The position numbers and the translations under genes are program-made. The notes under the pieces were generated by a model. The model was not told the origin of the DNA and ran no database searches. It was given only the letters and a program-made list of their open reading frames with translations. A DNA stretch of 64,000 bases, taken from an uncultured Candidatus Saccharibacteria bacterium. GTDB taxonomy: Bacteria > Patescibacteriota > Minisyncoccia > Phycocordibacterales > SW-6-46-9. The DNA lies in contig CAZHOI010000002.1 in NCBI GenBank assembly GCA_964534365.1, positions 8,138 through 72,137 of the forward strand. The letters are read 5' to 3'. Positions 4,022 to 53,509 of this stretch are shown piece by piece. The stretch's first letter is position 1; each line of letters begins with the position of its first letter.

Positions 4022-5449
4022 CTAGCCCAAAGATTTATAATGCTTTATAGCCACTTCTCTTTCTTCTTTATGACTTACTATTGGTTTTGGGTAATTTGTC
4101 CCCTCGAGGGCAATATCAAGTTCTTCATCTGACATTTCTCCTAGTTTATGAAGTACTTTACATTCAACATCTTTTAACTCGGGGATATATTTTTTAATAT
4201 ACAAACAATTTTTATCAAATTTTTCTTGCTGGGTCCAGGGATTAAATATTCTAAAATATGGTGCCGAGTCCGCGCCTGTCGAGGCCGCCCACTGCCACCC
4301 GCCATTATTATTAGCAGGATCATAATCAACCAAATGATTAGCAAACCAGCGCTCGCCATCGCGCCAATCCAAATGTAAATCCTTAGTTAGAAATGATGCC
4401 ACTATCATGCGCACGCGATTGTGCATCCAACCATCTCGCAATAATTGACGCATTCCAGCATCAATGATAGGAAATCCAGTCATACCCTGTTGCCACCTCT
4501 CTAGTAATTCATCTTTTGAGACATTCGATGTTTCGACTCCTGCCCAGTCCATACCCTGATATTTCTCTTGAAACTCATCACCCAAAACATAGGGAAAAGC
4601 ATAGAGTAAATGTAAATAAAAGTCCCGCCAATACAGCTCGGTAATATATTTGGAAGTCGGACTTCCAAATACTTCAATTGCATGCCAATAAACCTCGCGA
4701 ATCGATAAGGTGCCGAATGTTAAGTGCCCGGATATTTCGCTAGTTGAAATCTCTCCAGGATAATGGCGGTTGGCACGATAATCTGTCAAATCTTTGAGCT
4801 GGGCTAATTTGTTCAGCCCATGTGATCGCCCTCCTATCTGACGTGATGAATTACCCCCTGGATCCAGATCGCTCAAGATTGTTTTATTTGCTAGTAGGCC
4901 GCTTTGCGTTGTAATCAGATTTGCAGCACTAAACTTTGCCGGTTTGGCAACAGTTTGATTTATCGCTTTGCGTTTAAATGGGGTAAAAACTTTATAAGGC
5001 TGACCATCGTTTGTCGCCACCGATCCGGGTGCGGTTAATAAAACGTCAGCGAAAGTCACCAAATCAATCTCTTTACTGTCTATAACCGTTTTAATATTAG
5101 CATCACGTTGCAAGGCATATGGGGTATAGTCATTATTAAAATACACAGCCGCACATTTTTGCTCGACCGCTAAACGAGGAATCTCTTCCCAGGGCAATCC
5201 TTGTAAAAAATGTAACTTTGAACCTTTCTTTTGTAACTCCTCATATAGCTCTCGCAGTGACTCAATTAAAAATCGAAAGCTATTTTCGCCAAAGTAATCA
5301 TTTTGCTGTTTATCATATTGCGCTGGATCAAAACAAAATACTGGGATCACCTCTTGTGAATCTTCGCATGCTTTTATCAAAGCCGTATTGTCCTCTAGGC
5401 GATAATCGCGACGAAAAACAAATAGTGATTTTATATATTTTTTACTCAC
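4022..5449 (-). CDS. phrB: Deoxyribodipyrimidine photolyase (cryptochrome/photolyase family)
   Basis: N-terminal photolyase domain (FVFRRDYRLEDNTAL); C-terminal FAD-binding motifs WQQGMTGFPIIDAGMRQL...GWMHNRVRMIVASFL...NNGGWQWAASTGADSAPYFRIFNP. Confidence 0.9.
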   Translation of the reverse strand: MSKKYIKSLFVFRRDYRLEDNTALIKACEDSQEVIPVFCFDPAQYDKQQNDYFGENSFRFLIESLRELYEELQKKGSKLHFLQGLPWEEIPRLAVEQKCAAVYFNNDYTPYALQRDANIKTVIDSKEIDLVTFADVLLTAPGSVATNDGQPYKVFTPFKRKAINQTVAKPAKFSAANLITTQSGLLANKTILSDLDPGGNSSRQIGGRSHGLNKLAQLKDLTDYRANRHYPGEISTSEISGHLTFGTLSIREVYWHAIEVFGSPTSKYITELYWRDFYLHLLYAFPYVLGDEFQEKYQGMDWAGVETSNVSKDELLERWQQGMTGFPIIDAGMRQLLRDGWMHNRVRMIVASFLTKDLHLDWRDGERWFANHLVDYDPANNNGGWQWAASTGADSAPYFRIFNPWTQQEKFDKNCLYIKKYIPELKDVECKVLHKLGEMSDEELDIALEGTNYPKPIVSHKEEREVAIKHYKSLG

Positions 5450-20272: not shown

Positions 20273-20338
20273 AGTATAGCGATAATGTTAGTAAATGCTG
20301 TTTGGAGTGTTGATAACTAGGAATCTATGGGTTACTGA

Positions 20339-21538: not shown

Positions 21539-22390
21539 TTATTTAACGTAAATTCCCCCACTGGCGTCAATTACTACAAACTGATGATTGCCACTGGGAC
21601 GATCGGCGGTGTCAATTATGATCTCTACCCTTTCAACCTCGAAAATGTCTTCTCGATTGTTTATTAGGATCAAATCATCAGTACTTGAATTAAAATTATT
21701 GATATACTCTGGATCATTACTATAACCGCAGTTTTTAGCAGCAGATATTCTAGGCTGTAATAAAGGTCTAGAGTAAATTATAGACGGATTAAAGCTCGGT
21801 GTATCAGGCTCGATACAAAAGTCGGAATCCCCAATGTAGATTGGCGGCGTTGCACCGTGATAATCGTCTGAACAAAAGGTTGGATTAGATCCTTCACCAA
21901 AAAAACATACTTGCTTAACGACAAGAGGGCTATTCAATTTAATTGGGAAGATTCCATCTTGTTCGGACGAATCCGTATAATAACCATCTTCAATACTGTC
22001 GACAAATTGCACAAATTTAGCGTCGTGTTTGTTGGTTAAATCTAAGTATATACCACGATCATAATCACTATCTGCAGTTGTGACTAGCACATCAGTAGCT
22101 TGTGATTGCTGTTCGCGGAATAAAATAGCCAGTTCATGCGCGGCATTTTTCAGCCTGACACTCTTGTTGAAATCCTGCTGTGACACCACAATCACCCCGC
22201 CCAGCATGGCCATAATTGCGATTGACACCATTAACTCAACTACTGTGAATCCAGCCGATTCCGATTGGATATTTATCTCATTAGTTGAATGAAGGTATTT
22301 GGCTAGCCATTTAATCATATTATTTAATTTATTCATTGAACGCGGCGACACCAAGTTTATTAATCTCTTCGAATGGGACCCGGTATTCAA
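21539..22390 (-). CDS. Type IV pilin-like protein (minor pilin); true start probably an internal Met
   Basis: ...SAG|FTVVELMVSIAIMAMLGG; the ORF's 5' end overlaps the pilB 3' end. Confidence 0.7.
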   Translation of the reverse strand: MNTGSHSKRLINLVSPRSMNKLNNMIKWLAKYLHSTNEINIQSESAGFTVVELMVSIAIMAMLGGVIVVSQQDFNKSVRLKNAAHELAILFREQQSQATDVLVTTADSDYDRGIYLDLTNKHDAKFVQFVDSIEDGYYTDSSEQDGIFPIKLNSPLVVKQVCFFGEGSNPTFCSDDYHGATPPIYIGDSDFCIEPDTPSFNPSIIYSRPLLQPRISAAKNCGYSNDPEYINNFNSSTDDLILINNREDIFEVERVEIIIDTADRPSGNHQFVVIDASGGIYVK

Positions 22391-24068
22391 ACGCTTTTAA
22401 AATAGCGTCTTCGCGCATGGTTAACATCCCGTCGCGTCGGGCCGCATCATAGATCTCGCCCTCGTTCGGGTCTTTTAATAAGATCTCATCAATTTCGCGC
22501 GTCATACGCATTACTTCAAATACCGCTTGACGACCAGATGTGCCTTTGGGACAACGGGCGGTTGGTTCTATCCCAAGCACAAATTCAGGGTAGGTAATAT
22601 GACTACGATATTCTGGCGCCAGATCTTCGAATTCGCTATCAATAATTTTTTTGACTGATCCCTCAATCGGAATTTTACGCCCGGTACCTTTACAAATTTT
22701 TTGAATCAACCGCTGACCGATTGCCAATTTCAAAGTTGGTGCGATTAAATATGGGTCGACCCCCATGTCTACCAGTCGAGGGATTACGCCGGTTGCGGAA
22801 TTGGTGTGAATAGTAGACAGCACTAGGTGGCCAGTTAGAGCCGCCTGGACCGCTAGTTGCGCAGTTTCCTTGTCGCGAATCTCACCCACCATAATAATGT
22901 CGGGGTCTTGACGTAAAACGGTACGTAATCCCGAGGCAAAGGTATAGCCAATATCGCCATTAACGGCTGACTGCGAAACGCCAGGAATTTGATATTCGAC
23001 TGGGTCTTCTAGCGACAGGACGTTCTTGGTCTTGCGATCAACTTGTTCCAGCATGGTGTATAACGTAGTTGATTTACCTGATCCAGTCGGTCCCGAAATC
23101 AGAATTAATCCATAAGGTTCATCAATTGCATTTTTAATCAACTCCAGATTGCGCTGTGACAATCCCAGAGAAGTTAAATCGCTGACATTACGACTAGATT
23201 CTAATAATCGCATTACAATTTTTTCACCAAATGATGTGGGGAATGTCGAGACCCGAAAATCAATTTTATGACCATCAATATGGGCACTGAAACGACCATC
23301 TTGTGGTTTACGTTTTTCGTCAATTCGCAGATTTGCCAGAATCTTTACCCGGGCAACAACAGCGGCATGAGTAGCTGCCGGCAGAGCCAAACTTTGTTTA
23401 AGAGCACCATCAACTCGAAAACGAACCTTGGTTTCGGTTTCGTAGGGCTCGATATGAATATCAGAAGCATGATCTTCTTTGGCATGACGAATAATGGTAG
23501 CTACAATTTTAGTAACGGGGGCAGCATTAGCATCCGGTTCACTGTCAACTGCATTTTCAACTGGTTTATCAGGTTCAAGGATTAACTCGCCCTCTAATTC
23601 AGACAAGGCTGATCCAACTTCGTTAATTAATTGATCAACTGATCCGGTTGCCTGATCAAAATCCAATTTGGTAACTACTAGTATTTTGAACGATAGCCCT
23701 AGGGACGAGGTGATAAAGTCCATGACCTCGCGAGCCCCTTCGCTATGAGGATTAACAAATCCAACTACTAGTTCATGATCTTTTTTATCCAGGGGAATAA
23801 TGCTGTACAGTTCAACTGTTTTGGCTGGAACCATCTTCAAGACTTCTTCTGAGATACTGTTGCCTGTAATCCGCTTACCAGGGAAATTATAGAATTGAGA
23901 TTTTATTTCCAAAACTTGATCCTGGGTAATATTAATTTCATCAAAGGCAATCTCGTAGTAATCGCCCTTTTCTACTTCCGAGCGAACTGTACGGTATTGC
24001 TCGGGGGTCAAAAAACCTTTTTCATTGGCAAAATCTAGGATTGATAGTTGTGTTTCCAGTTCTACCAT
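22329..24068 (-). CDS. pilB: Type IV pilus assembly ATPase PilB (GspE family)
   Basis: N-terminal GSPII_E_N-like domain; Walker A GPTGSGKSTT; Asp/His boxes; C-terminal tetracysteine-like CxxC. Confidence 0.9.
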   Translation of the reverse strand: MVELETQLSILDFANEKGFLTPEQYRTVRSEVEKGDYYEIAFDEINITQDQVLEIKSQFYNFPGKRITGNSISEEVLKMVPAKTVELYSIIPLDKKDHELVVGFVNPHSEGAREVMDFITSSLGLSFKILVVTKLDFDQATGSVDQLINEVGSALSELEGELILEPDKPVENAVDSEPDANAAPVTKIVATIIRHAKEDHASDIHIEPYETETKVRFRVDGALKQSLALPAATHAAVVARVKILANLRIDEKRKPQDGRFSAHIDGHKIDFRVSTFPTSFGEKIVMRLLESSRNVSDLTSLGLSQRNLELIKNAIDEPYGLILISGPTGSGKSTTLYTMLEQVDRKTKNVLSLEDPVEYQIPGVSQSAVNGDIGYTFASGLRTVLRQDPDIIMVGEIRDKETAQLAVQAALTGHLVLSTIHTNSATGVIPRLVDMGVDPYLIAPTLKLAIGQRLIQKICKGTGRKIPIEGSVKKIIDSEFEDLAPEYRSHITYPEFVLGIEPTARCPKGTSGRQAVFEVMRMTREIDEILLKDPNEGEIYDAARRDGMLTMREDAILKAFEYRVPFEEINKLGVAAFNE

Positions 24069-25926: not shown

Positions 25927-26727
25927 CTATAGCAAGAAAAGGTTAAAATTATCCAACAAATCTAGTTTGGGAATACTGACAATTATATACCCGGTAATTA
26001 AGTATGGCCCAAATGGCACCGCTGACTTCATTCCCAACTGTTTGCCAGAAGACTGATTCGGCATAAGTTTCTGCCCCGCTAGAATAATTAGCGACACTGC
26101 AGCCCCAATCCAAAAAGCTAGTAATACCGCCGTCGCACCAGCCGATAGACCCAATAACCAGCCGATTGATAGTGATAGTGTCCCATCAGCAAATCCCATT
26201 CCTCGACCTTTGGTAATTGCCCATAATAACCAGAAAAATCCGGCTAAAATTGGTCCGGCTAGTAATTCCAAAACGGTTGGATAGGTTGGCAATAAATGGA
26301 TAGGATCAAAAAACAATAATAGAAAAGAAATAAGGATTAAAGGAAGAGATAGTTCGTGCGGAATAATAAATTGATCCAAATCAATTAATGCAATCATGAT
26401 CATTATCAACGCTATTATTGAACTTACGACAAATCCAGACCAGCTGGCAGCACTTAGCCAGATAGCAACTAATATTGCCGCTGTAGCGACCTCAACCAAG
26501 GGATAACGCGGTGATAATCGACTGTGACACGCCGAACATTTCCCCTGCTGCCATAACCACGACAATACAGGGATTAAATTTTTTGCCCGCAGGGTTTGTC
26601 CGCAGGTAAAACATTTAGATCGTCTGGCATTCTGCCGACTAGTCCCCCACCGCCCTGCGGTAGCATTTAAATACGACCCTACGATTAATCCAAATATTCC
26701 TATAAAAATAATTACCAGTAAGTCCAT
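25927..26727 (-). CDS. pilD: Prepilin peptidase/N-methyltransferase (A24 family)
   Basis: N-terminal TM; Zn-binding CFTCGQ...CSACHS motif; polytopic C-terminal domain. Confidence 0.85.
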   Translation of the reverse strand: MDLLVIIFIGIFGLIVGSYLNATAGRWGTSRQNARRSKCFTCGQTLRAKNLIPVLSWLWQQGKCSACHSRLSPRYPLVEVATAAILVAIWLSAASWSGFVVSSIIALIMIMIALIDLDQFIIPHELSLPLILISFLLLFFDPIHLLPTYPTVLELLAGPILAGFFWLLWAITKGRGMGFADGTLSLSIGWLLGLSAGATAVLLAFWIGAAVSLIILAGQKLMPNQSSGKQLGMKSAVPFGPYLITGYIIVSIPKLDLLDNFNLFLL

Positions 26728-26782: not shown

Positions 26783-27358
26783 TTATTTTTTTGAGGTATA
26801 ATTTTTTATATTTTCCTTCTCTGTTGTAGTCAGATTTCTGTTCAAATCTTCCAAATATGTAGTCGGTAGATCAATCGGTAAGTCATTGTCAACAATTTTG
26901 TATCTGGCAAATCTGCGATTATGCGCACTCCCCCATTTCCAATCTTCTGCCTTATCTACTAAATTTGCCCTTTTTGCATTTCGTTCAATATAGCGAAGTA
27001 GATTGTAAAAATACTTATCGTCTCTAATATGAAAAGATTTATAACGACCTTGGTATAAATGACCAAATCCCACTTGACTATACTTAGATTTAAACCTTTT
27101 AACGTGAGTATTGGTTAGTCGGCGCATAAAATTACCTAATTCACCATTAATTTGTGGTGACACTAAAAGGTGCCAATGATTAGGCATTACGCAAAAACCC
27201 AAGACTTTGACATTGAACAAATCTTTGGTTTCATCAATTAATAATAGAAATTCTTGATAATCATTATTATCTTTAAAAATTTTAATCTTGTTATTTGATC
27301 GATTTAATACATGATAATACTCGCCTGCAATATCTGTTCTAGGTAAGCGGCCCATCAA
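26783..27358 (-). mobile_element. IS200/IS605-type HUH Y1 transposase, REP-associated tyrosine transposase (RAYT)-like
   Basis: HUH motif VMPNHWHLLV; conserved N-terminal YHVLNRSNN; C-terminal catalytic Tyr region; flanked on both sides by REP palindromes. Confidence 0.8.
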
Positions 27359-27426: not shown

Positions 27427-27779
27427 CAAGTTTCAAAGGTTGAGTTGGGATTGGTGCTAGTGACGCAAATTTGTTGATTACCTGATAACTGGGCGCTTAC
27501 CTGATAATGTTGGTTGGTGCTAGAGCAACTATAGTAATCAAAATTAATCGAAGACACGTAAGCCTCTTGAGCAATTTTTTCACAGACTCGATCATAATTG
27601 CCATTATTAACCTGATGTAACATAGCAATGGCTGGCACAGAGGATATAAAACTAATTAGGCGACTGTCTTCAGCATCCGCAATTGTTTGGACTGAGAAGA
27701 TGCTAAAAATAGCGACTATGCCCAGAATAAACAGCAGGGTCAGTAATTGCAGACTGGAACGAACGCTTTTACGAGTCAT
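27423..27779 (-). CDS. Small secreted Cys-containing protein (possibly a degenerate pilin-like protein)
   Basis: 118 aa; N-terminal hydrophobic helix LQLLTLLFILGIVAIFSIF; four Cys in the C-terminal half. Confidence 0.4.
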   Translation of the reverse strand: MTRKSVRSSLQLLTLLFILGIVAIFSIFSVQTIADAEDSRLISFISSVPAIAMLHQVNNGNYDRVCEKIAQEAYVSSINFDYYSCSSTNQHYQVSAQLSGNQQICVTSTNPNSTFETC

Positions 27780-27886
27780 TTATAGCCAAGTATAACCGAA
27801 GACTTTGACCATCCTTTAACCAGCCGTGGATAAAGTTGTGTGTTCGAAAATTATTATACAATGAACTTAGCAATCCGCTGGGTGAC

Positions 27887-27964: not shown

Positions 27965-28459
27965 CTACAAACATTCTGCGACGACCCCAGTACCACCACC
28001 AGTCGCCTCGCCGGTTCCCCGATACCCTGATGAATCCGCACACCAATTTTGAGATATCCCATTTTCATCTAAATATTCTACAGATACTGCATACGAGCCT
28101 CCGTCCTCCCCTACTGCACATGTGGCCTCAATCCCTTCTGATTCTGCACCTAAAACAATTTCAGATACATTATATTCATTAGCTGTATCTGAGTTGAAGA
28201 TACTTATAGTATCACCAGTAGAATGGTCGCAAACCAATGGATCAGCAGCAACAGCTGTTCCAAACCCGCTGTTTTGACCGCGGTAAAATTCACTCTGACC
28301 AGTTAAGTTAGCTAATGATGCCTTAACTGCGGCTTCTGAACCACTACTCCTGGCATCGCCGAGTGACCCCAATACAATGCTACCAATAATTCCGATGATG
28401 GCAATTACTACCAATAATTCTAGCAAAGTAAACCCTTTTTTGTATATATCAACCTTCAT
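27965..28459 (-). CDS. pilA: Type IV major pilin (PilA-like), second tandem copy
   Basis: MKVDIYKKG|FTLLELLVVIAIIGIIGSIV: canonical prepilin leader, Glu5 and hydrophobic helix. Confidence 0.85.
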   Translation of the reverse strand: MKVDIYKKGFTLLELLVVIAIIGIIGSIVLGSLGDARSSGSEAAVKASLANLTGQSEFYRGQNSGFGTAVAADPLVCDHSTGDTISIFNSDTANEYNVSEIVLGAESEGIEATCAVGEDGGSYAVSVEYLDENGISQNWCADSSGYRGTGEATGGGTGVVAECL

Positions 28460-28477
28460 TATTTATTAAGTATACAA

Positions 28478-28501
28478 CAAAAAAACCACTGAAAGTGGTT
28501 T
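28478..28501 (-). terminator. Intrinsic terminator between the two tandem pilin genes (AACCACTTTCAGTGGTT plus U-run on the minus strand)
   Basis: 7-bp stem with T-run immediately after the first pilin stop. Confidence 0.6.
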
Positions 28502-28519
28502 AAATGTAATTACTATGAA

Positions 28520-28972
28520 TTAGATTGTACAGTCTGCGTCACCAGATCCAATTCCAACAGCAGCTTGTTCGCCTCCGTAACCTGATGAGTCAATACAGTA
28601 GAAATCACCGCCCAATAATGGAGAAGATATGGCATACCCAGTACCTGTTGAAACACATGTAGCGGTTCCACCACCGTTTTGTGAATTAACTTGAGTTATC
28701 GCATTATTAAAAGCGTCAGTAGCAAACATGTCGGTATTACAACCAACACCCGCAGCTCCGTAAGTATTATCACCCACACCACTATAGTATAGCTCTGCCT
28801 GAGCTCGCATGTTGTTTAGAGATGATTGAACAGATGCATCTGAACCAGAGGTTCGAGCTGAGTTCAATGAAGCCAGAACAACAGAGGCCAAGATTCCGAT
28901 GATGGCAATTACTACCAACAGCTCGATCAAGGTGAATCCCTTGTCCTTAGCTTTAAAGTTAAGAGTTTTCAT
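28520..28972 (-). CDS. pilA: Type IV major pilin (PilA-like), first and promoter-proximal copy, with C-terminal disulfide loop
   Basis: MKTLNFKAKDKG|FTLIELLVVIAIIGILASVV; C-terminal Cys pairs. Confidence 0.88.
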   Translation of the reverse strand: MKTLNFKAKDKGFTLIELLVVIAIIGILASVVLASLNSARTSGSDASVQSSLNNMRAQAELYYSGVGDNTYGAAGVGCNTDMFATDAFNNAITQVNSQNGGGTATCVSTGTGYAISSPLLGGDFYCIDSSGYGGEQAAVGIGSGDADCTI

Positions 28973-28994: not shown

Positions 28995-29035
28995 AATATT
29001 GAAGTGCATTTAACACTATCAATTCGAATTGATCA
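28995..29035 (-). promoter_or_regulatory. Candidate sigma70-type pilin promoter (TTGATA-18 nt-TATTAA; -10 about 20 nt from the ATG) overlapped by a perfect 14-bp palindrome TCAATTCGAATTGA (29019-29032)
   Basis: Read on the minus strand upstream of pilA at 28972. Confidence 0.4.
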
Positions 29036-29106
29036 TGTTTAATGATCTGATATTAAGTATACGGGGTTTATAAACATGTCCAGAACTCGACTGTGTATAA
29101 CATTGC

Positions 29107-29148
29107 GTAGCACGTAGCACGTAGCACGTAGCACGTAGCACGTAGCAC
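29107..29148. repeat. Heptanucleotide tandem repeat (GTAGCAC)x6, about 135-175 bp upstream of the major pilin start
   Basis: Six perfect copies seen in the sequence. Confidence 0.9.
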
Positions 29149-29479
29149 TATAAACAATAGTTCAAACCGATAAATTAACGACAAATAGTTGGTAGCATTT
29201 AATTCCAGATTGATGAAGTGATAAATTTTGGCAAGAGGCTGCTGAAATATGAGGCATCTAGAAATTTGTGCCGGAGCCTTGTATTAATAAGGTGAACAAA
29301 CAAATTACTGATAAAAATGACAATATTTATACCAGATTGATGAAGTTCTTGATAGCGAGCTAATGTAAGGATAGGAGATTTGGATAAAATGCGCGGCGCT
29401 AGGTTTTTTGGACTAGAGCGGTATTCATTTATACCGCGATATAACAAAAAACTGCAGTAACAAAGCAGTTTGCCAAATC

Positions 29480-30682
29480 TTAAATGCCGGTGGAGATGTT
29501 GTAAATTGGGAACAATACCGCCGCCAACAACGTCCCTACCCCGATTCCTAAAAATACTATCATCGCTGGTTCGATCAAATCAACCAACGAATCCACCGCC
29601 CGGGTTACCTCGTCTTTGTAGTATTTCGACAAAGTACCCAGAATAGTGCCGATTTTACCACTTTCTTCGCCAACACGGATCATTTGAACCAATACCCCTG
29701 GGATATAATCCGGGTAATTTGACAATGCATCTGAGAGCGACTTCCCAGACCTGACTTCTTCGATTGAATCAGAAATTATACCAGCATAAACTTTATTGCC
29801 GATGACTTCTCGGGAAGTTTCCAAGGCATGAAGCATCGAGATACCAGATGAGAGCATGGTATGCATATTATCAGCAAACCGCGCCAGATAAATTTTACGA
29901 TATAGATTGCCGACAAAAGGAGTATGTAGGGCAAATACCGTTAGACGCTCGCGGTTAGTCGGTTGACGCAAAAAGTAAATTAATCCAGCGACAGCAAGTA
30001 TTAGCAGCGTCAGCAGAATAAAACCATAATTGACTAGAAAGGCACTGGTTCCTAATACAATTTTAGTATAAACCGGCAAATCCTGACCTGATTCAGTCAA
30101 AATTACCCCAATTTTAGGAATAATGTAGGTCAGCATCAAAATCATTACGATAAAGAAGGTAAAGACCACAAATACCGGGTAAGTTAAAGCGCTTCGAGCC
30201 TTGCTGGCCAGTTCATAATTGCGCTCGAGGTATTCGGCCAGGTATTGAAAGGTTTGTGGCAGACGACCAGTCTCTTCGCCCGAGGCGATCATATTGACAT
30301 AAAATTTGGAAAATACTTTAGGGTGTTTAGCCAGACTGACCGAGAGTTGCTGGCCGGCTTCCAGATCAGCGACAATTTCTTCAAGGATTTCTTTGAGGCG
30401 AGGATTGTCAACTTCTTCGGACAATAACGAGAAAATTCGCAGGGTTGAAATATTGGCGTTAAACAGTGTGGCCAGCTGTCGCGATAATAGTACGACGTCT
30501 TTGGTTTGAACGCGGTTTATTATATTAAATTCCAGCTCGCCCAGGGATTTTTTTTCTGTGATTTTAGAGACTACTAAACCAGATCCACGCAGAGCACGCA
30601 ATGCTGCCTCGCGGTCATCAGCTTCGTAGACCCCTTTTGTAGGAGCGCCGTCAGCAGTAGTAGCAATGTATTCAAATTTCAT
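29480..30682 (-). CDS. pilC: Type IV pilus assembly platform protein PilC (GspF family)
   Basis: Two GspF repeats, three TM segments; typical length and synteny. Confidence 0.9.
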   Translation of the reverse strand: MKFEYIATTADGAPTKGVYEADDREAALRALRGSGLVVSKITEKKSLGELEFNIINRVQTKDVVLLSRQLATLFNANISTLRIFSLLSEEVDNPRLKEILEEIVADLEAGQQLSVSLAKHPKVFSKFYVNMIASGEETGRLPQTFQYLAEYLERNYELASKARSALTYPVFVVFTFFIVMILMLTYIIPKIGVILTESGQDLPVYTKIVLGTSAFLVNYGFILLTLLILAVAGLIYFLRQPTNRERLTVFALHTPFVGNLYRKIYLARFADNMHTMLSSGISMLHALETSREVIGNKVYAGIISDSIEEVRSGKSLSDALSNYPDYIPGVLVQMIRVGEESGKIGTILGTLSKYYKDEVTRAVDSLVDLIEPAMIVFLGIGVGTLLAAVLFPIYNISTGI

Positions 30683-30685
30683 AAA

Positions 30686-31750
30686 TTATTTTAGGTAGCG
30701 CTGAAAAATAGCGGGATTATGGGCATAACGCATGGCAGCGGATTCTTCGACCTGGTTATTTTTTACCAGCTGGGCCAAGGATCGATCCATGTCAATCATA
30801 CCCTGATCCATGCCAGTTTCGATTACCGACCGCAATTCATGGGTGCGTTCATCACGAATCAAGTTGGCTACGGCAGCATTGTTAATTAGCAACTCATAGG
30901 CTGGCACTACACCTGATTCGTTGCTGGGGATTAACCGTTGGGACAAGATACCCGACAGCGCGGCTGACAACTGTGATCGAATTTGGCGTTGTTGACCGGT
31001 CGGAAATACGTCAATAATTCGATCAATAGTTTGCGGGGCGTCGTTTGTATGCAAGGTCGCAAATACCAAGTGACCAGTTTCGGCTGCAGTAATGGCCGAT
31101 GAAATCGTATCCAGATTACGCAGCTCACCCAACATGATTACGTTGGCATCCTGTCGGAATGCCGAATGCAGCGCCTGGTCAAAACCATCAGTATCAAGAC
31201 CAACTTCACGCTGATCAATAATTGATTCTTTTTGCACGTGAATATATTCGATTGGGTCCTCGATAGTCAGAATGTGTTCTTGTCTGGTGGTATTGATTAG
31301 ATCAATCATCGCCGCCAAGGTAGTTGTTTTACCCTGACCGACTGGTCCTACTACTAGAAAGAATCCTTGTTTTTGAAGGGCAAAATCTTTAAGGATCTCG
31401 GGCAAGCCAAGTTCTGATAAAGAAGGAATTTTGCGTGGGATATAGCGCAAAGCGATGCCTACCCCACCACGTTGAATAAAGGCATTACCCCGAAATCTGG
31501 TAATATCATCGGCTGAATACGAATAATCAAGCTCTTTATCTTCTAGGAAGCGGTCTTTTTGTTCTTTGGATAGCATTAGGGTTAAAAACTCCAAAGTATC
31601 ACTGCCGCTAAGCACCGGAAGATTTTGTAATGGGATCAGGGTTCCGGCGACTCGAATAGTAGGATGTCTGCCGATCGAAAAATGAACGTCAGAAGCCGCT
31701 TGCGAACGGACAATCTCGATTATTTGATCTAGTGTCTGTTTGTAGTTCAT
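30686..31750 (-). CDS. pilT: Twitching-motility retraction ATPase PilT
   Basis: Walker A GPVGQGKTTT; PilT-specific GMIDMDRSLAQL region; about 350 aa. Confidence 0.9.
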   Translation of the reverse strand: MNYKQTLDQIIEIVRSQAASDVHFSIGRHPTIRVAGTLIPLQNLPVLSGSDTLEFLTLMLSKEQKDRFLEDKELDYSYSADDITRFRGNAFIQRGGVGIALRYIPRKIPSLSELGLPEILKDFALQKQGFFLVVGPVGQGKTTTLAAMIDLINTTRQEHILTIEDPIEYIHVQKESIIDQREVGLDTDGFDQALHSAFRQDANVIMLGELRNLDTISSAITAAETGHLVFATLHTNDAPQTIDRIIDVFPTGQQRQIRSQLSAALSGILSQRLIPSNESGVVPAYELLINNAAVANLIRDERTHELRSVIETGMDQGMIDMDRSLAQLVKNNQVEESAAMRYAHNPAIFQRYLK

Positions 31751-32863
31751 TTAAATGTTGTGAATGTATTTAAGTGCGAGTCCCGCTGCAACGGCATATT
31801 CAGGACCAGTCTCTACCAGTAGTTTATCAAGAAATTCCGGCGCTTCGGCATTTATGAATGGTTGACAAATAGTTATTTTGGAATCCAATGTTTTTGCAAC
31901 ATATTCTGGCAACCCATATAACAGTGAACCACCCCCGCATAAATAAATAGGCAGTGATTTTTCATCACTAAATTCAGCCCGAACCCGACGAATGTCAGCT
32001 ACAATTTTATCAATTTGTGCTTTTAAAGCATCGCCCACTGGCAATCCATCTAGATCAGCTAATTTTAAATTTCGTTTAAGTTTCTCGGCCTTGGCAAAAT
32101 CAATGCCCAGACTAGTCTGTAACACTTTGCTAAATTCAACCCCACCATTGAGTTTTTTATGAGCCGAAATGATTTTATCACCCTCAATGGCATAAATTTT
32201 AGTATAGCGGGCGCCAATATCAACAATTATAGCCTGATCGACATTGTGACCAATCGCGGAACGCATCACGGAATAGGCTTCCAGTTCGAAATAAGTAACT
32301 GGTAATTCTAGATTATTAAGCACTGTTTTATACGTATCAATTATTTCTTTATTTATCACAAAGGCCAACACATTCCGAGTGACATTGTTTTGAGAAATCG
32401 GTTTAGCATCAGGTTTTTGATCTTGCGGTTTATCAATTACTTGCCAATCAATATAAACCTGTGAAATCGGAACAGGAATTTCGGATTTAAGCCTGGCATG
32501 AACTAGTCTATCGAGCTCGGCATCATTATTGCCAGCTTTTATCTGCAGGGGTACTACCAAAGTGGCAGACAGCGGTATTGCCACCGCGACCGCCTCGGGA
32601 TTATTAATCGGCGTATTGGCTAGCAAAGCGGTTAGAGCCTGTTGTAGTTTGGGGGCATCAAGGTTGGCCACAAATCCAGCGGGTTTTTCAACAAGGGGTC
32701 CCAAGTCTAATTCCCCATAATTACCTAGCTGCACTTTGCCTTTGTCTTCGATGAATTGAACTAGCTTGATCGATGATGACCCTAGTTCGATACCAACCGA
32801 AGTAATCCGATGACCTTGACTGGCTTGTTTAATTGCCTTGAAAAATGATTGCAATTTGGGCAT
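31751..32863 (-). CDS. pilM: Type IV pilus assembly protein PilM (actin-like ATPase fold)
   Basis: N-terminal VGIELGSSSIKLV; ...DIGARYTKIYA...; C-terminal GGGS; head of the pil operon. Confidence 0.85.
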   Translation of the reverse strand: MPKLQSFFKAIKQASQGHRITSVGIELGSSSIKLVQFIEDKGKVQLGNYGELDLGPLVEKPAGFVANLDAPKLQQALTALLANTPINNPEAVAVAIPLSATLVVPLQIKAGNNDAELDRLVHARLKSEIPVPISQVYIDWQVIDKPQDQKPDAKPISQNNVTRNVLAFVINKEIIDTYKTVLNNLELPVTYFELEAYSVMRSAIGHNVDQAIIVDIGARYTKIYAIEGDKIISAHKKLNGGVEFSKVLQTSLGIDFAKAEKLKRNLKLADLDGLPVGDALKAQIDKIVADIRRVRAEFSDEKSLPIYLCGGGSLLYGLPEYVAKTLDSKITICQPFINAEAPEFLDKLLVETGPEYAVAAGLALKYIHNI

Positions 32864-42429: not shown

Positions 42430-42699
42430 ATGAATTACTATGTCTATATTCTATATAGTGAAAAAGACGGCAACTTATATGTTGGGTGTACATCTAATCT
42501 CAATAAAAGGATTAGATATCACTGCTTGGGTCATGTAAAAACAACCAAGCATCGTCGTCCTTTAAAGCTAATCCACAAAGAATTATTTGTAGAAAAGGGG
42601 CAAGCCTATAATCGAGAAAGGTTTTTAAAAAGTCTATGGGGATCTAGGGAAAAACAAAAAATTAAGAGGGAGTTTCTTGATAAGAAAAACCGAATTTAA
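42430..42699 (+). CDS. GIY-YIG domain nuclease-family protein (stand-alone, about 89 aa)
   Basis: YVYILYS...GNLYVGCTSNLNKRIRYH... matches GIY-YIG. Confidence 0.7.
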   Translation: MNYYVYILYSEKDGNLYVGCTSNLNKRIRYHCLGHVKTTKHRRPLKLIHKELFVEKGQAYNRERFLKSLWGSREKQKIKREFLDKKNRI

Positions 42700-53267: not shown

Positions 53268-53474
53268 GTTGTGTCAAGTATATCTTATCAAGCTAGCAAT
53301 ACAAATTAAAAAGCCCACTTTGACAGTGAGCGTCTTGATGCTGCCGGCTCAAATCCTGATATATTCAGGTGGGTGCTCGCAGTTTGATATGCCCGAACAA
53401 ATCAAGCACATACCAAACGATGATAAAGCTCCCTAGAGAAAGATTGTTGGAAATGAATCTCCCGGCAGCTAATT

Positions 53475-53509
53475 AACTATAACTGATAACTATAACTATA
53501 ACTATAACA
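53475..53509. repeat. Hexanucleotide tandem repeat (ATAACT)n, about 5-6 units
   Basis: Seen in the sequence, between the ndk 3' end and the upstream region of the membrane-protein gene. Confidence 0.8.

Follow-up and report, generated by a model that had tools for sequence, protein, structure and literature searches.

What, if anything, does a perfect six-unit tandem repeat do in front of the pilin gene of a Patescibacteria bacterium? [quoted passage not shown] These bacteria have few classical regulators, such that stochastic switches built on simple sequence repeats (SSRs) would be an economical means of varying pili. In the literature that we searched, phase variation is described almost only in host-adapted pathogens, and a full-text literature search for a paper linking Patescibacteria to phase variation found none. 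Is the repeat, then, an SSR contingency locus in a lineage in which phase variation is undescribed? We consider this proposal plausible, and the evidence for and against it is drawn from the repeat itself, from the promoter beside it, and from the pilus loci of relatives.

The DNA analyzed here, referred to as the window, is a stretch of 64 kb from a Patescibacteria/Paceibacteria (CPR) bacterium. In collections that hold one genome per species, relatives of its PilC reach a maximum of ~50% identity, and the best ones are all from Patescibacteria metagenome-assembled genomes (MAGs; Paceibacteria, Parcubacteria, Nomurabacteria), whereas the nearest relatives in a large protein collection share 73%, 64% and 61% identity. 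A T4P cluster is read on the minus strand (Table 1), and the repeat falls in the 507-bp gap that separates pilC from the first pilin gene, probably that of the major pilin, at 135–176 nt before the pilin ATG. The DNA from pilC to the array showed no canonical terminator, so read-through from pilC across the array is possible, and no candidate regulator gene is adjacent to the array. As an aside on the cluster, the Y1 transposase homologue occupies the same site, between the major pilin gene and pilD, in four divergent Paceibacteria loci (the window, L014, L015 and L037), which suggests a domesticated or locus-associated gene, not a mobile insertion.

Table 1. Positions of pilus genes, candidate regulatory elements and repeats, in the window unless a locus (L number) is given
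Feature	Position	Strand	Remarks
pilM	31751-32863	-	
PilT-like ATPase	30686-31750	-	
pilC	29480-30682	-	T2SSF platform protein; gene upstream of the gap
15-mer ACTTCATCAATCTGG, distal copy	29332-29346	-	exact; 127 bp from proximal copy
15-mer ACTTCATCAATCTGG, proximal copy	29205-29219	-	exact
Heptamer array	29107-29148	+	GTAGCAC x6
Upstream promoter box TTATACACA	29092-29100 (read 29100 to 29092)	-	one mismatch to TTATCCACA
Inferred -10 hexamer TATACT	29056-29061 (read 29061 to 29056)	-	from bipartite pattern
38-bp palindrome	29007-29044		in inferred 5' UTR; core TCAATTCGAATTGA at 29019-29032
Palindrome counterparts	L073:~4304-4320, L073:~4910-4925, L078:~4845-4862		
Pilin 1	28520-28972	-	first type IV pilin gene; 150 aa; KGFTLIELLVVIAIIGIL; N_methyl motif
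Terminator-like hairpin and T run	28483-28501	-	directly after pilin 1
Pilin 2	27965-28459	-	small ORF next
Y1 (HUH) transposase homologue	26783-27358	-	IS200-like
Y1 homologues at the same site	L014:5930-6691, L015:5914-6669, L037:5972-6679		
Prepilin peptidase pilD	25927-26727	-	
PilO-like and minor pilin genes			between pilD and pilB in cluster order
pilB	22329-24068	-	
Other boxes of the bipartite pattern	27825-27833, 20308-20316	-	
Other box of the bipartite pattern	42569-42577	+	
TTATCCACA boxes in relatives	L008-L063:about 5204-5240		
Imperfect SSR (GTTATA)	53474-53508	-	~5.7 copies (TRF)
pilD heptamer arrays, x3-4	L014:7135-7162, L031:6201-6221, L031:6344-6371, L037:7194-7221, L041:4142-4169		
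Minor-pilin heptamer arrays	L063:7919-7944, L063:7981-8005, L063:8521-8549, L063:8589-8611		
Pilin-leader heptamer array	L046:7965-7996		
(AT)11 in promoter spacer	L026:3631-3652		
Tandem duplication in major pilin ORF	L200:3316-3347		32 nt
30-nt pilD tract	L200:4142-4171		

On the plus strand the array reads GTAGCAC six times without a mismatch, which is GTGCTAC six times on the pilin sense (minus) strand. TRF delimits it at 29106-29148 (period 7, 6.1 copies, 100% matches) with a score of 86, the top score in the window. A census of perfect SSRs with at least three copies and at least 14 nt returned this array and one (ATAACT)x3 from the 64 kb and nothing else, and a search with a 14-mer of two units, allowing up to two mismatches, gave no further match in the window (0.14 expected by chance). 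The array is the sole long perfect SSR in the window. A perfect periodic tract of 42 nt is beyond chance in 64 kb, which makes it a product of slippage or duplication; an ORF of 40 aa that runs across it was set aside as an artefact generated by the repeat. The first-pass annotation of this DNA had placed six perfect heptamers about 135-175 bp upstream of the pilin ATG (28972), and both our direct reading with TRF and the N_methyl motif of the pilin ORF agree with it. It had also proposed other long SSRs as the background against which the array should be judged, and this background is nearly empty of perfect repeats, although an imperfect one, (GTTATA), does occur in a non-pilus gap, namely the 431 bp from the NDK gene to an ORF of 138 aa, with no link to the pilus cluster.

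Could the array be an artefact of assembly or sequencing? Logan contigs (k=31) from two SRA runs do break at the array, ending 30 nt into it from either side. However, a k=31 graph is expected to loop on any 43-nt periodic tract, so the break is silent on heterogeneity, and the Logan flanks match the window base for base. Moreover, the JGI contigs of three samples (3300040789, 3300040798 and 3300040801), which are 100% identical to the window, cross the array with the identical six copies, and the same array sequence stands in L001, L004, L005 and L215. We regard an artefact as next to impossible.

Where does the array stand with respect to the promoter? Alignment by eye of the 170 nt upstream of the major pilin genes of ~40 related loci revealed, in Paceibacteria, a conserved TTATCCACA box followed after 28–30 nt by a -10-like TATAAT or TATACT. 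Exact TTATCCACA boxes number 27 in 327 kb of Paceibacteria pilus loci, versus 2.5 expected, and nearly all of them lie between pilC and the major pilin gene; a TATAAT, TATACT or TACAAT follows 28–30 nt downstream in 16 of the 27. A degenerate form of this bipartite pattern (box-N27-31-TATAAT/TATACT/TACAAT) matches the window four times, versus 0.55 times in shuffles, and all four matches lie between genes and run in the same direction as the gene that follows: the pilin gene, the ORFs that start at 27779 and 20272, and the tmRNA gene. At the pilin gene, the -10 begins 30 nt downstream of the TTATACACA box. On this model, whose elements are defined by comparison and not by experimental mapping, pilin transcription would start near 29049 with a 5' UTR of ~77 nt, and the array would occupy about -58 to -99, ending 6 nt upstream of the box. 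A generic sigma-70 scan chose TTGATA-16-AATATT, inside the palindrome, instead; we give the comparative model the greater weight. The array thus sits where an SSR contingency locus would be expected, at the promoter (as defined by comparison) of a gene for a surface structure, and the earlier placement of the array in the pilin promoter region, upstream of the core elements, is borne out by the box and the TATACT.

The comparison provides a usable pilin promoter model for the group, TTATCCACA-N28-30-TATAAT, and a full-text literature search for a description of this architecture in Parcubacteria found none. Two observations on these elements can be added. At the ORFs starting at 27779 and 20272 (minus strand), the predicted -10 TATACT lies 0–10 nt before the annotated start, which suggests leaderless mRNAs, unlike the ~77-nt 5' UTR predicted for the pilin. 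Additionally, TTATCCACA is identical to the DnaA-box consensus; an origin of replication with a cluster of DnaA boxes was considered for this reason and rejected, since GC skew is monotonic and the motif is a promoter element before several genes.

Other elements of the gap may matter as well. The palindrome in the inferred 5' UTR has counterparts (CCAATNCGNATTGG) that precede the pilin genes in the relatives with 61% and 64% PilC identity (L073 and L078), and it could be an operator or an RNA hairpin. Its form, (C/T)CAATNCGNATTG(G/A), is kept in the inferred pilin 5' UTR of the window and of these relatives. Upstream of the array, two exact copies of the 15-mer ACTTCATCAATCTGG are the one repeat within the gap that reaches significance, and a ~130-bp tandem duplication of the whole gap, which the repeat spacings had brought to mind, was dismissed as only this 15-mer pair is significant. 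We view ACTTCATCAATCTGG as a candidate distal regulator site. At six copies of the heptamer, the centre of the proximal 15-mer is 116 bp (~11.0 helical turns) from the centre of the box, and the two 15-mers are 127 bp (~12.1 turns) apart, which would put both 15-mers and the box on one face of the helix, a matter of sequence arithmetic and not evidence of binding.

These positions suggest how the array might work. Replication slippage would act on a recently expanded SSR directly upstream of the pilin core promoter, and the gain or loss of a 7-bp unit would change both the distance and the helical phase between the upstream sequences (AT-rich DNA and the two ACTTCATCAATCTGG sites) and the TTATACACA box and -10. 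Each unit would add a rotation of ~240 degrees, and three units (21 bp, two turns) would restore the register; pilin transcription would thereby be set at different levels in different cells. That slippage is frequent enough to be useful, that something binds the upstream elements, and that copy number affects expression are all suppositions of this scheme. In support of it, the six copies exceed the cut-off used in phase-variation surveys, at least five copies for units of at least 4 nt (PMC6321876), and thus place the array among long-unit SSRs of mutable length. We put the array's being a transcriptional contingency locus of the major pilin gene, made by recent slippage expansion, at somewhat less than an even chance.

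The closest described systems are nadA and hmw, whose repeats work from a comparable kind of position; the array fits a transcriptional contingency locus of the nadA or hmw type, and the distal-spacing form is the reading with the best support. In Neisseria meningitidis, a (TAAA)n tract between NadR operators sets the repression of the adhesin gene nadA (Metruccio et al. 2009, PMC2791445). As at nadA, the SSR here is upstream of a core promoter and flanked by candidate sites (two 15-mers upstream and the palindrome downstream), the proposed effect is through the spacing or phasing of distal elements, and expression would be graded, not all-or-none. The two differ in that the unit is 7 bp here and 4 bp there, that we identified no NadR-like repressor or IHF site, and that the flanking elements here are sequence repeats only, with no length variants seen.

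In Haemophilus influenzae, (ATCTTTC)n tracts lie ~100 bp upstream of the adhesin genes hmw1A and hmw2A (PMC2651432), where they are transcribed in the 5' UTR and form, with a G-rich arm, a hairpin that is processed by RNase III (PMC12721329). Heptanucleotide promoter SSRs are in this sense an established type of switch, as the first-pass annotation had stated. Shared with hmw are the heptanucleotide unit, a position ~100–180 bp upstream of the start codon of a gene for a surface adhesin or fibre, and a proposed control of volume instead of frame. However, hmw tracts have at least 11 copies (13–38 in genomes) and the array has six, and it lies upstream of the inferred promoter and not in the 5' UTR, save for possible read-through from pilC. 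Might the array nonetheless act as RNA, in a long pilin 5' UTR or a pilC read-through transcript, through its structure, RNase processing or an RNA-binding protein? The missing canonical terminator makes read-through plausible, the hmw hairpin is a precedent, and, by inspection, (GUGCUAC)n units can pair with one another via ACGU and G-U pairs. Yet on neither strand does the predicted fold of the array beat that of shuffled sequence (z = +0.82 and -0.43), unlike the long hairpin of hmw; no region complementary to the array and comparable to the G-rich arm was found; the gap has no Rfam match even at E = 1; and with the box and -10 downstream of the array, the main pilin transcript should exclude it. 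With the inferred promoter downstream of it and no special fold, the array is a poor match for the hmw RNA variant, and we judge an RNA element improbable.

A different proposal is that of a fixed cis-regulatory array, in which a DNA-binding or single-strand-binding protein would recognise the six units as reiterated sites, their number staying constant. In classical promoters, class I activators act in the upstream zone in which the array sits. The copy number is also invariant in the three samples, and a high-GC taxon, described below, carries (GTGCNAC)n in a stereotyped position 5–6 nt after stop codons, which suggests recognition of the motif. Against such sites, a 7-bp period would put successive ones on different faces of the duplex, and the perfect identity of six units points to recent expansion instead of conservation. 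Neither motif nor array recurs elsewhere in the window or upstream of the relatives' pilin genes, and a candidate regulator gene next to the array is, as noted, lacking. For these reasons we give a fixed array little credence, about as much as we give an RNA element.

How variable, and how old, is the array? All three consensus assemblies, from different samples, have six copies, a consensus being a form of data in which minority alleles are invisible, and the sampled population is clonal, with 0 differences in 21.9 kb. A metagenome scan with the array flanks and a variable gap, a pattern that recovers the window's own copy, gave 0 matches in a collection that is without this strain. Among relatives, no comparable array is present in the fully assembled pilC–pilin gaps of those with 61% and 64% PilC identity, nor in the stretch covered by two contigs of the relative with 73% identity, which end 246–272 nt after pilC and short of the pilin gene. 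The absence of the array from these nearer relatives indicates a recent origin, in keeping with the perfect match among its units. The earlier interpretation of the array as a phase switch therefore stands in part: it is favoured by the promoter position, the six copies, the established switch type and the SSRs of relatives, and disfavoured by the lack of copy-number change across the three consensus assemblies. We find phase variation plausible here, as a deduction from these features.

What do the pilus loci of relatives reveal? In 401 kb of related loci, 13 of 20 near-perfect arrays have period 7. Of ten perfect heptamer arrays, nine are associated with pilus genes, being within or next to them: pilD has five, and the other four are at the 5' ends of pilin genes, either inside the gene or a short way upstream. 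None was found in the ATPase genes, pilC or pilM of these loci. Perfect heptamers in four copies, all in frame, encode part of the same PilD loop in three species (L014, L031 and L037), with the different units TTTCAAG, ATTTGGA and AGTTACA; L031 has a second pilD array, and the perfect four-copy array of L041 is in another PilD loop. These pilD heptamers look like contingency loci of the frameshift type. Perfect repeats at one site, in loci whose PilCs are each ~50% identical to that of the window, imply continuing turnover or repeated origin. Heptamers also occur in the 5' coding ends (leaders) of pilin genes in L046 and L063, and L044 has (AGATGAC)x3 at 120 nt upstream of its pilin gene. The L063 locus, from Kaiserbacteria, has two tandem paralogues of a minor-pilin gene, each with an unusually long 5' region that encodes the leader and contains two heptamer arrays. 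Heptamer SSRs were not detectably more frequent in pilus DNA than in the remaining DNA (p = 0.41), and as the comparison loci are 81% pilus genes, an enrichment over genomic background is not demonstrable with them.

A dinucleotide SSR also merits mention. In the Parcubacteria locus L026, the pilin promoter has (AT)11 precisely in the spacer that separates the TTATCCACA box from the TACAAT -10, which brings this spacer to 36 nt versus the usual 28–30 nt. This geometry resembles that of the H. influenzae fimbrial genes hifA and hifB, which, as they are cited in PMC2651432, have a (TA)n repeat in the promoter spacer. The array of the window shares with that system an SSR at the promoter of a pilus or fimbria gene and differs in lying upstream of both elements. 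Being outside the spacer between the box and the -10, the array cannot act by altering the spacing of the two elements.

Are any of the relatives' repeats seen to vary? In the species of L041, two Logan contigs from different runs (L199 and L201) end exactly in the pilD tract, which is 30 nt in the deposited MAG (L200). Since a k=31 graph should pass through a tract of only 30 nt without looping, the breaks suggest a longer or polymorphic allele in those samples. Intact PilD is found on only one contig of this species, the neighbouring PilC being on seven or eight, and a search with the PilD of L041 for length variants has one full-length copy on record. In L200, a 32-nt tandem duplication splits the major pilin ORF (111 + 62 aa), which is intact (166 aa) in L199 and L201; the duplication could be an OFF allele that exists in nature or a mistake of the assembly. 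Separately, in a wastewater-type Paceibacterota species sampled ten times (L205-L214), two sites (~2528 and ~7531) are polymorphic between samples: a 10-nt tandem duplication, CTAAGTTTAT, upstream of the response-regulator gene of the pilus cluster, and an in-frame indel of 12 nt in the leader of a minor pilin. Other candidates for variation were discarded: an apparent pilD frameshift between L001 and L002 is a difference of gene calling on identical DNA, and apparent ON/OFF differences of pilD and pilB in the P0005 and P0130 species arise from runs of N and alternative start codons, not from SSRs.

The heptamer is not confined to pili. A metagenome scan found (GTGCTAC)x4 in at least 120 contigs, and among the matches listed most are soil or rhizosphere DNA of 64–72% GC with degenerate GTGCNAC arrays, several per contig and 3–14 copies each (L079-L198, e.g. 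L115, L171, L079 and L080). Among these listed matches, 75 arrays stand 60 nt or more away from the contig ends; a stop codon precedes 34 of them by no more than 60 nt, with a mode of 5–6 nt, and 26 of the 34 are sense-oriented. This intergenic soil family showed no match to any described repeat family. Cyanobacterial STRR repeats are likewise dispersed intergenic tandem heptamers with many copies per genome. The window's array resembles such dispersed families in being an intergenic tandem heptamer, and its GTGCTAC unit is identical to that of the soil contigs, but those families have many arrays per genome, clustered after stop codons in the soil contigs, whereas here there is one array in 64 kb, beside a promoter. 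A few low-GC, CPR-like contigs carry long GTGCTAC or GTGTTAC arrays beside housekeeping genes. Arrays in unrelated genomes with no link to pili mean that the unit is not private to pili; their occurrence in unrelated taxa suggests a mutational bias towards the unit, which may simply be prone to expansion, given its self-complementary ACGT. Beyond this tendency to expand, the scan has little bearing on the pilin locus. The first-pass annotation had held that similar repeats at non-regulatory sites would count against a switch, and it is in this respect that its reading is weakened, by the pilus-free arrays of unrelated genomes and by the second, imperfect SSR of the window.

The array might instead be a neutral by-product: a slippage-prone heptamer, recently expanded in an unusually long and weakly constrained spacer, that leaves pilin expression unchanged. 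Among the gaps of the window this one ranks in the top three by length, and it accounts for 7.5% of the 6.7 kb of intergenic DNA, such that a neutral array would fall in it 7.5% of the time, a chance large enough to weigh against the switch. In relatives the box comes right after pilC, which makes most of the 507-bp gap extra sequence. The identical copy number in three samples, the apparent mutational bias, the SSR in a non-pilus gap and the lack of a demonstrable pilus-specific enrichment all point the same way. On the other hand, the array is only 6 nt from a conserved element, and its 42 bp of GC-richer DNA displace the usual upstream sequence; long SSRs are very rare here, at one in 64 kb; and the pilus SSRs of relatives are at functionally consequential positions, such as the in-frame pilD arrays and the (AT)11 of a promoter spacer. 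We take neutrality to be a serious possibility, only slightly less likely than the switch.

What, then, would a contingency locus at the pilin promoter mean for these bacteria? Variation of the array, and of the SSRs in the pilD and pilin genes of relatives, would if real extend contingency loci to a large, deep-branching radiation, and metagenomes that already exist could then be scored at the level of reads with these SSRs as a simple marker. Looking across the lineage, heptanucleotide and occasionally dinucleotide SSRs could constitute a T4P contingency system throughout the Patescibacteria, an idea that we offer tentatively and think rather unlikely. Such a system may operate at three levels, namely pilin promoters (as in the window, L026 and L044), frameshift switches in pilD, and the 5' coding ends of minor-pilin genes. 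If this idea is true, no phase-variable locus would have been described before these in such obligate episymbionts, and clonal populations would hedge between piliated states, able to attach to a host and take up DNA, and non-piliated ones that are resistant to phage or detached.
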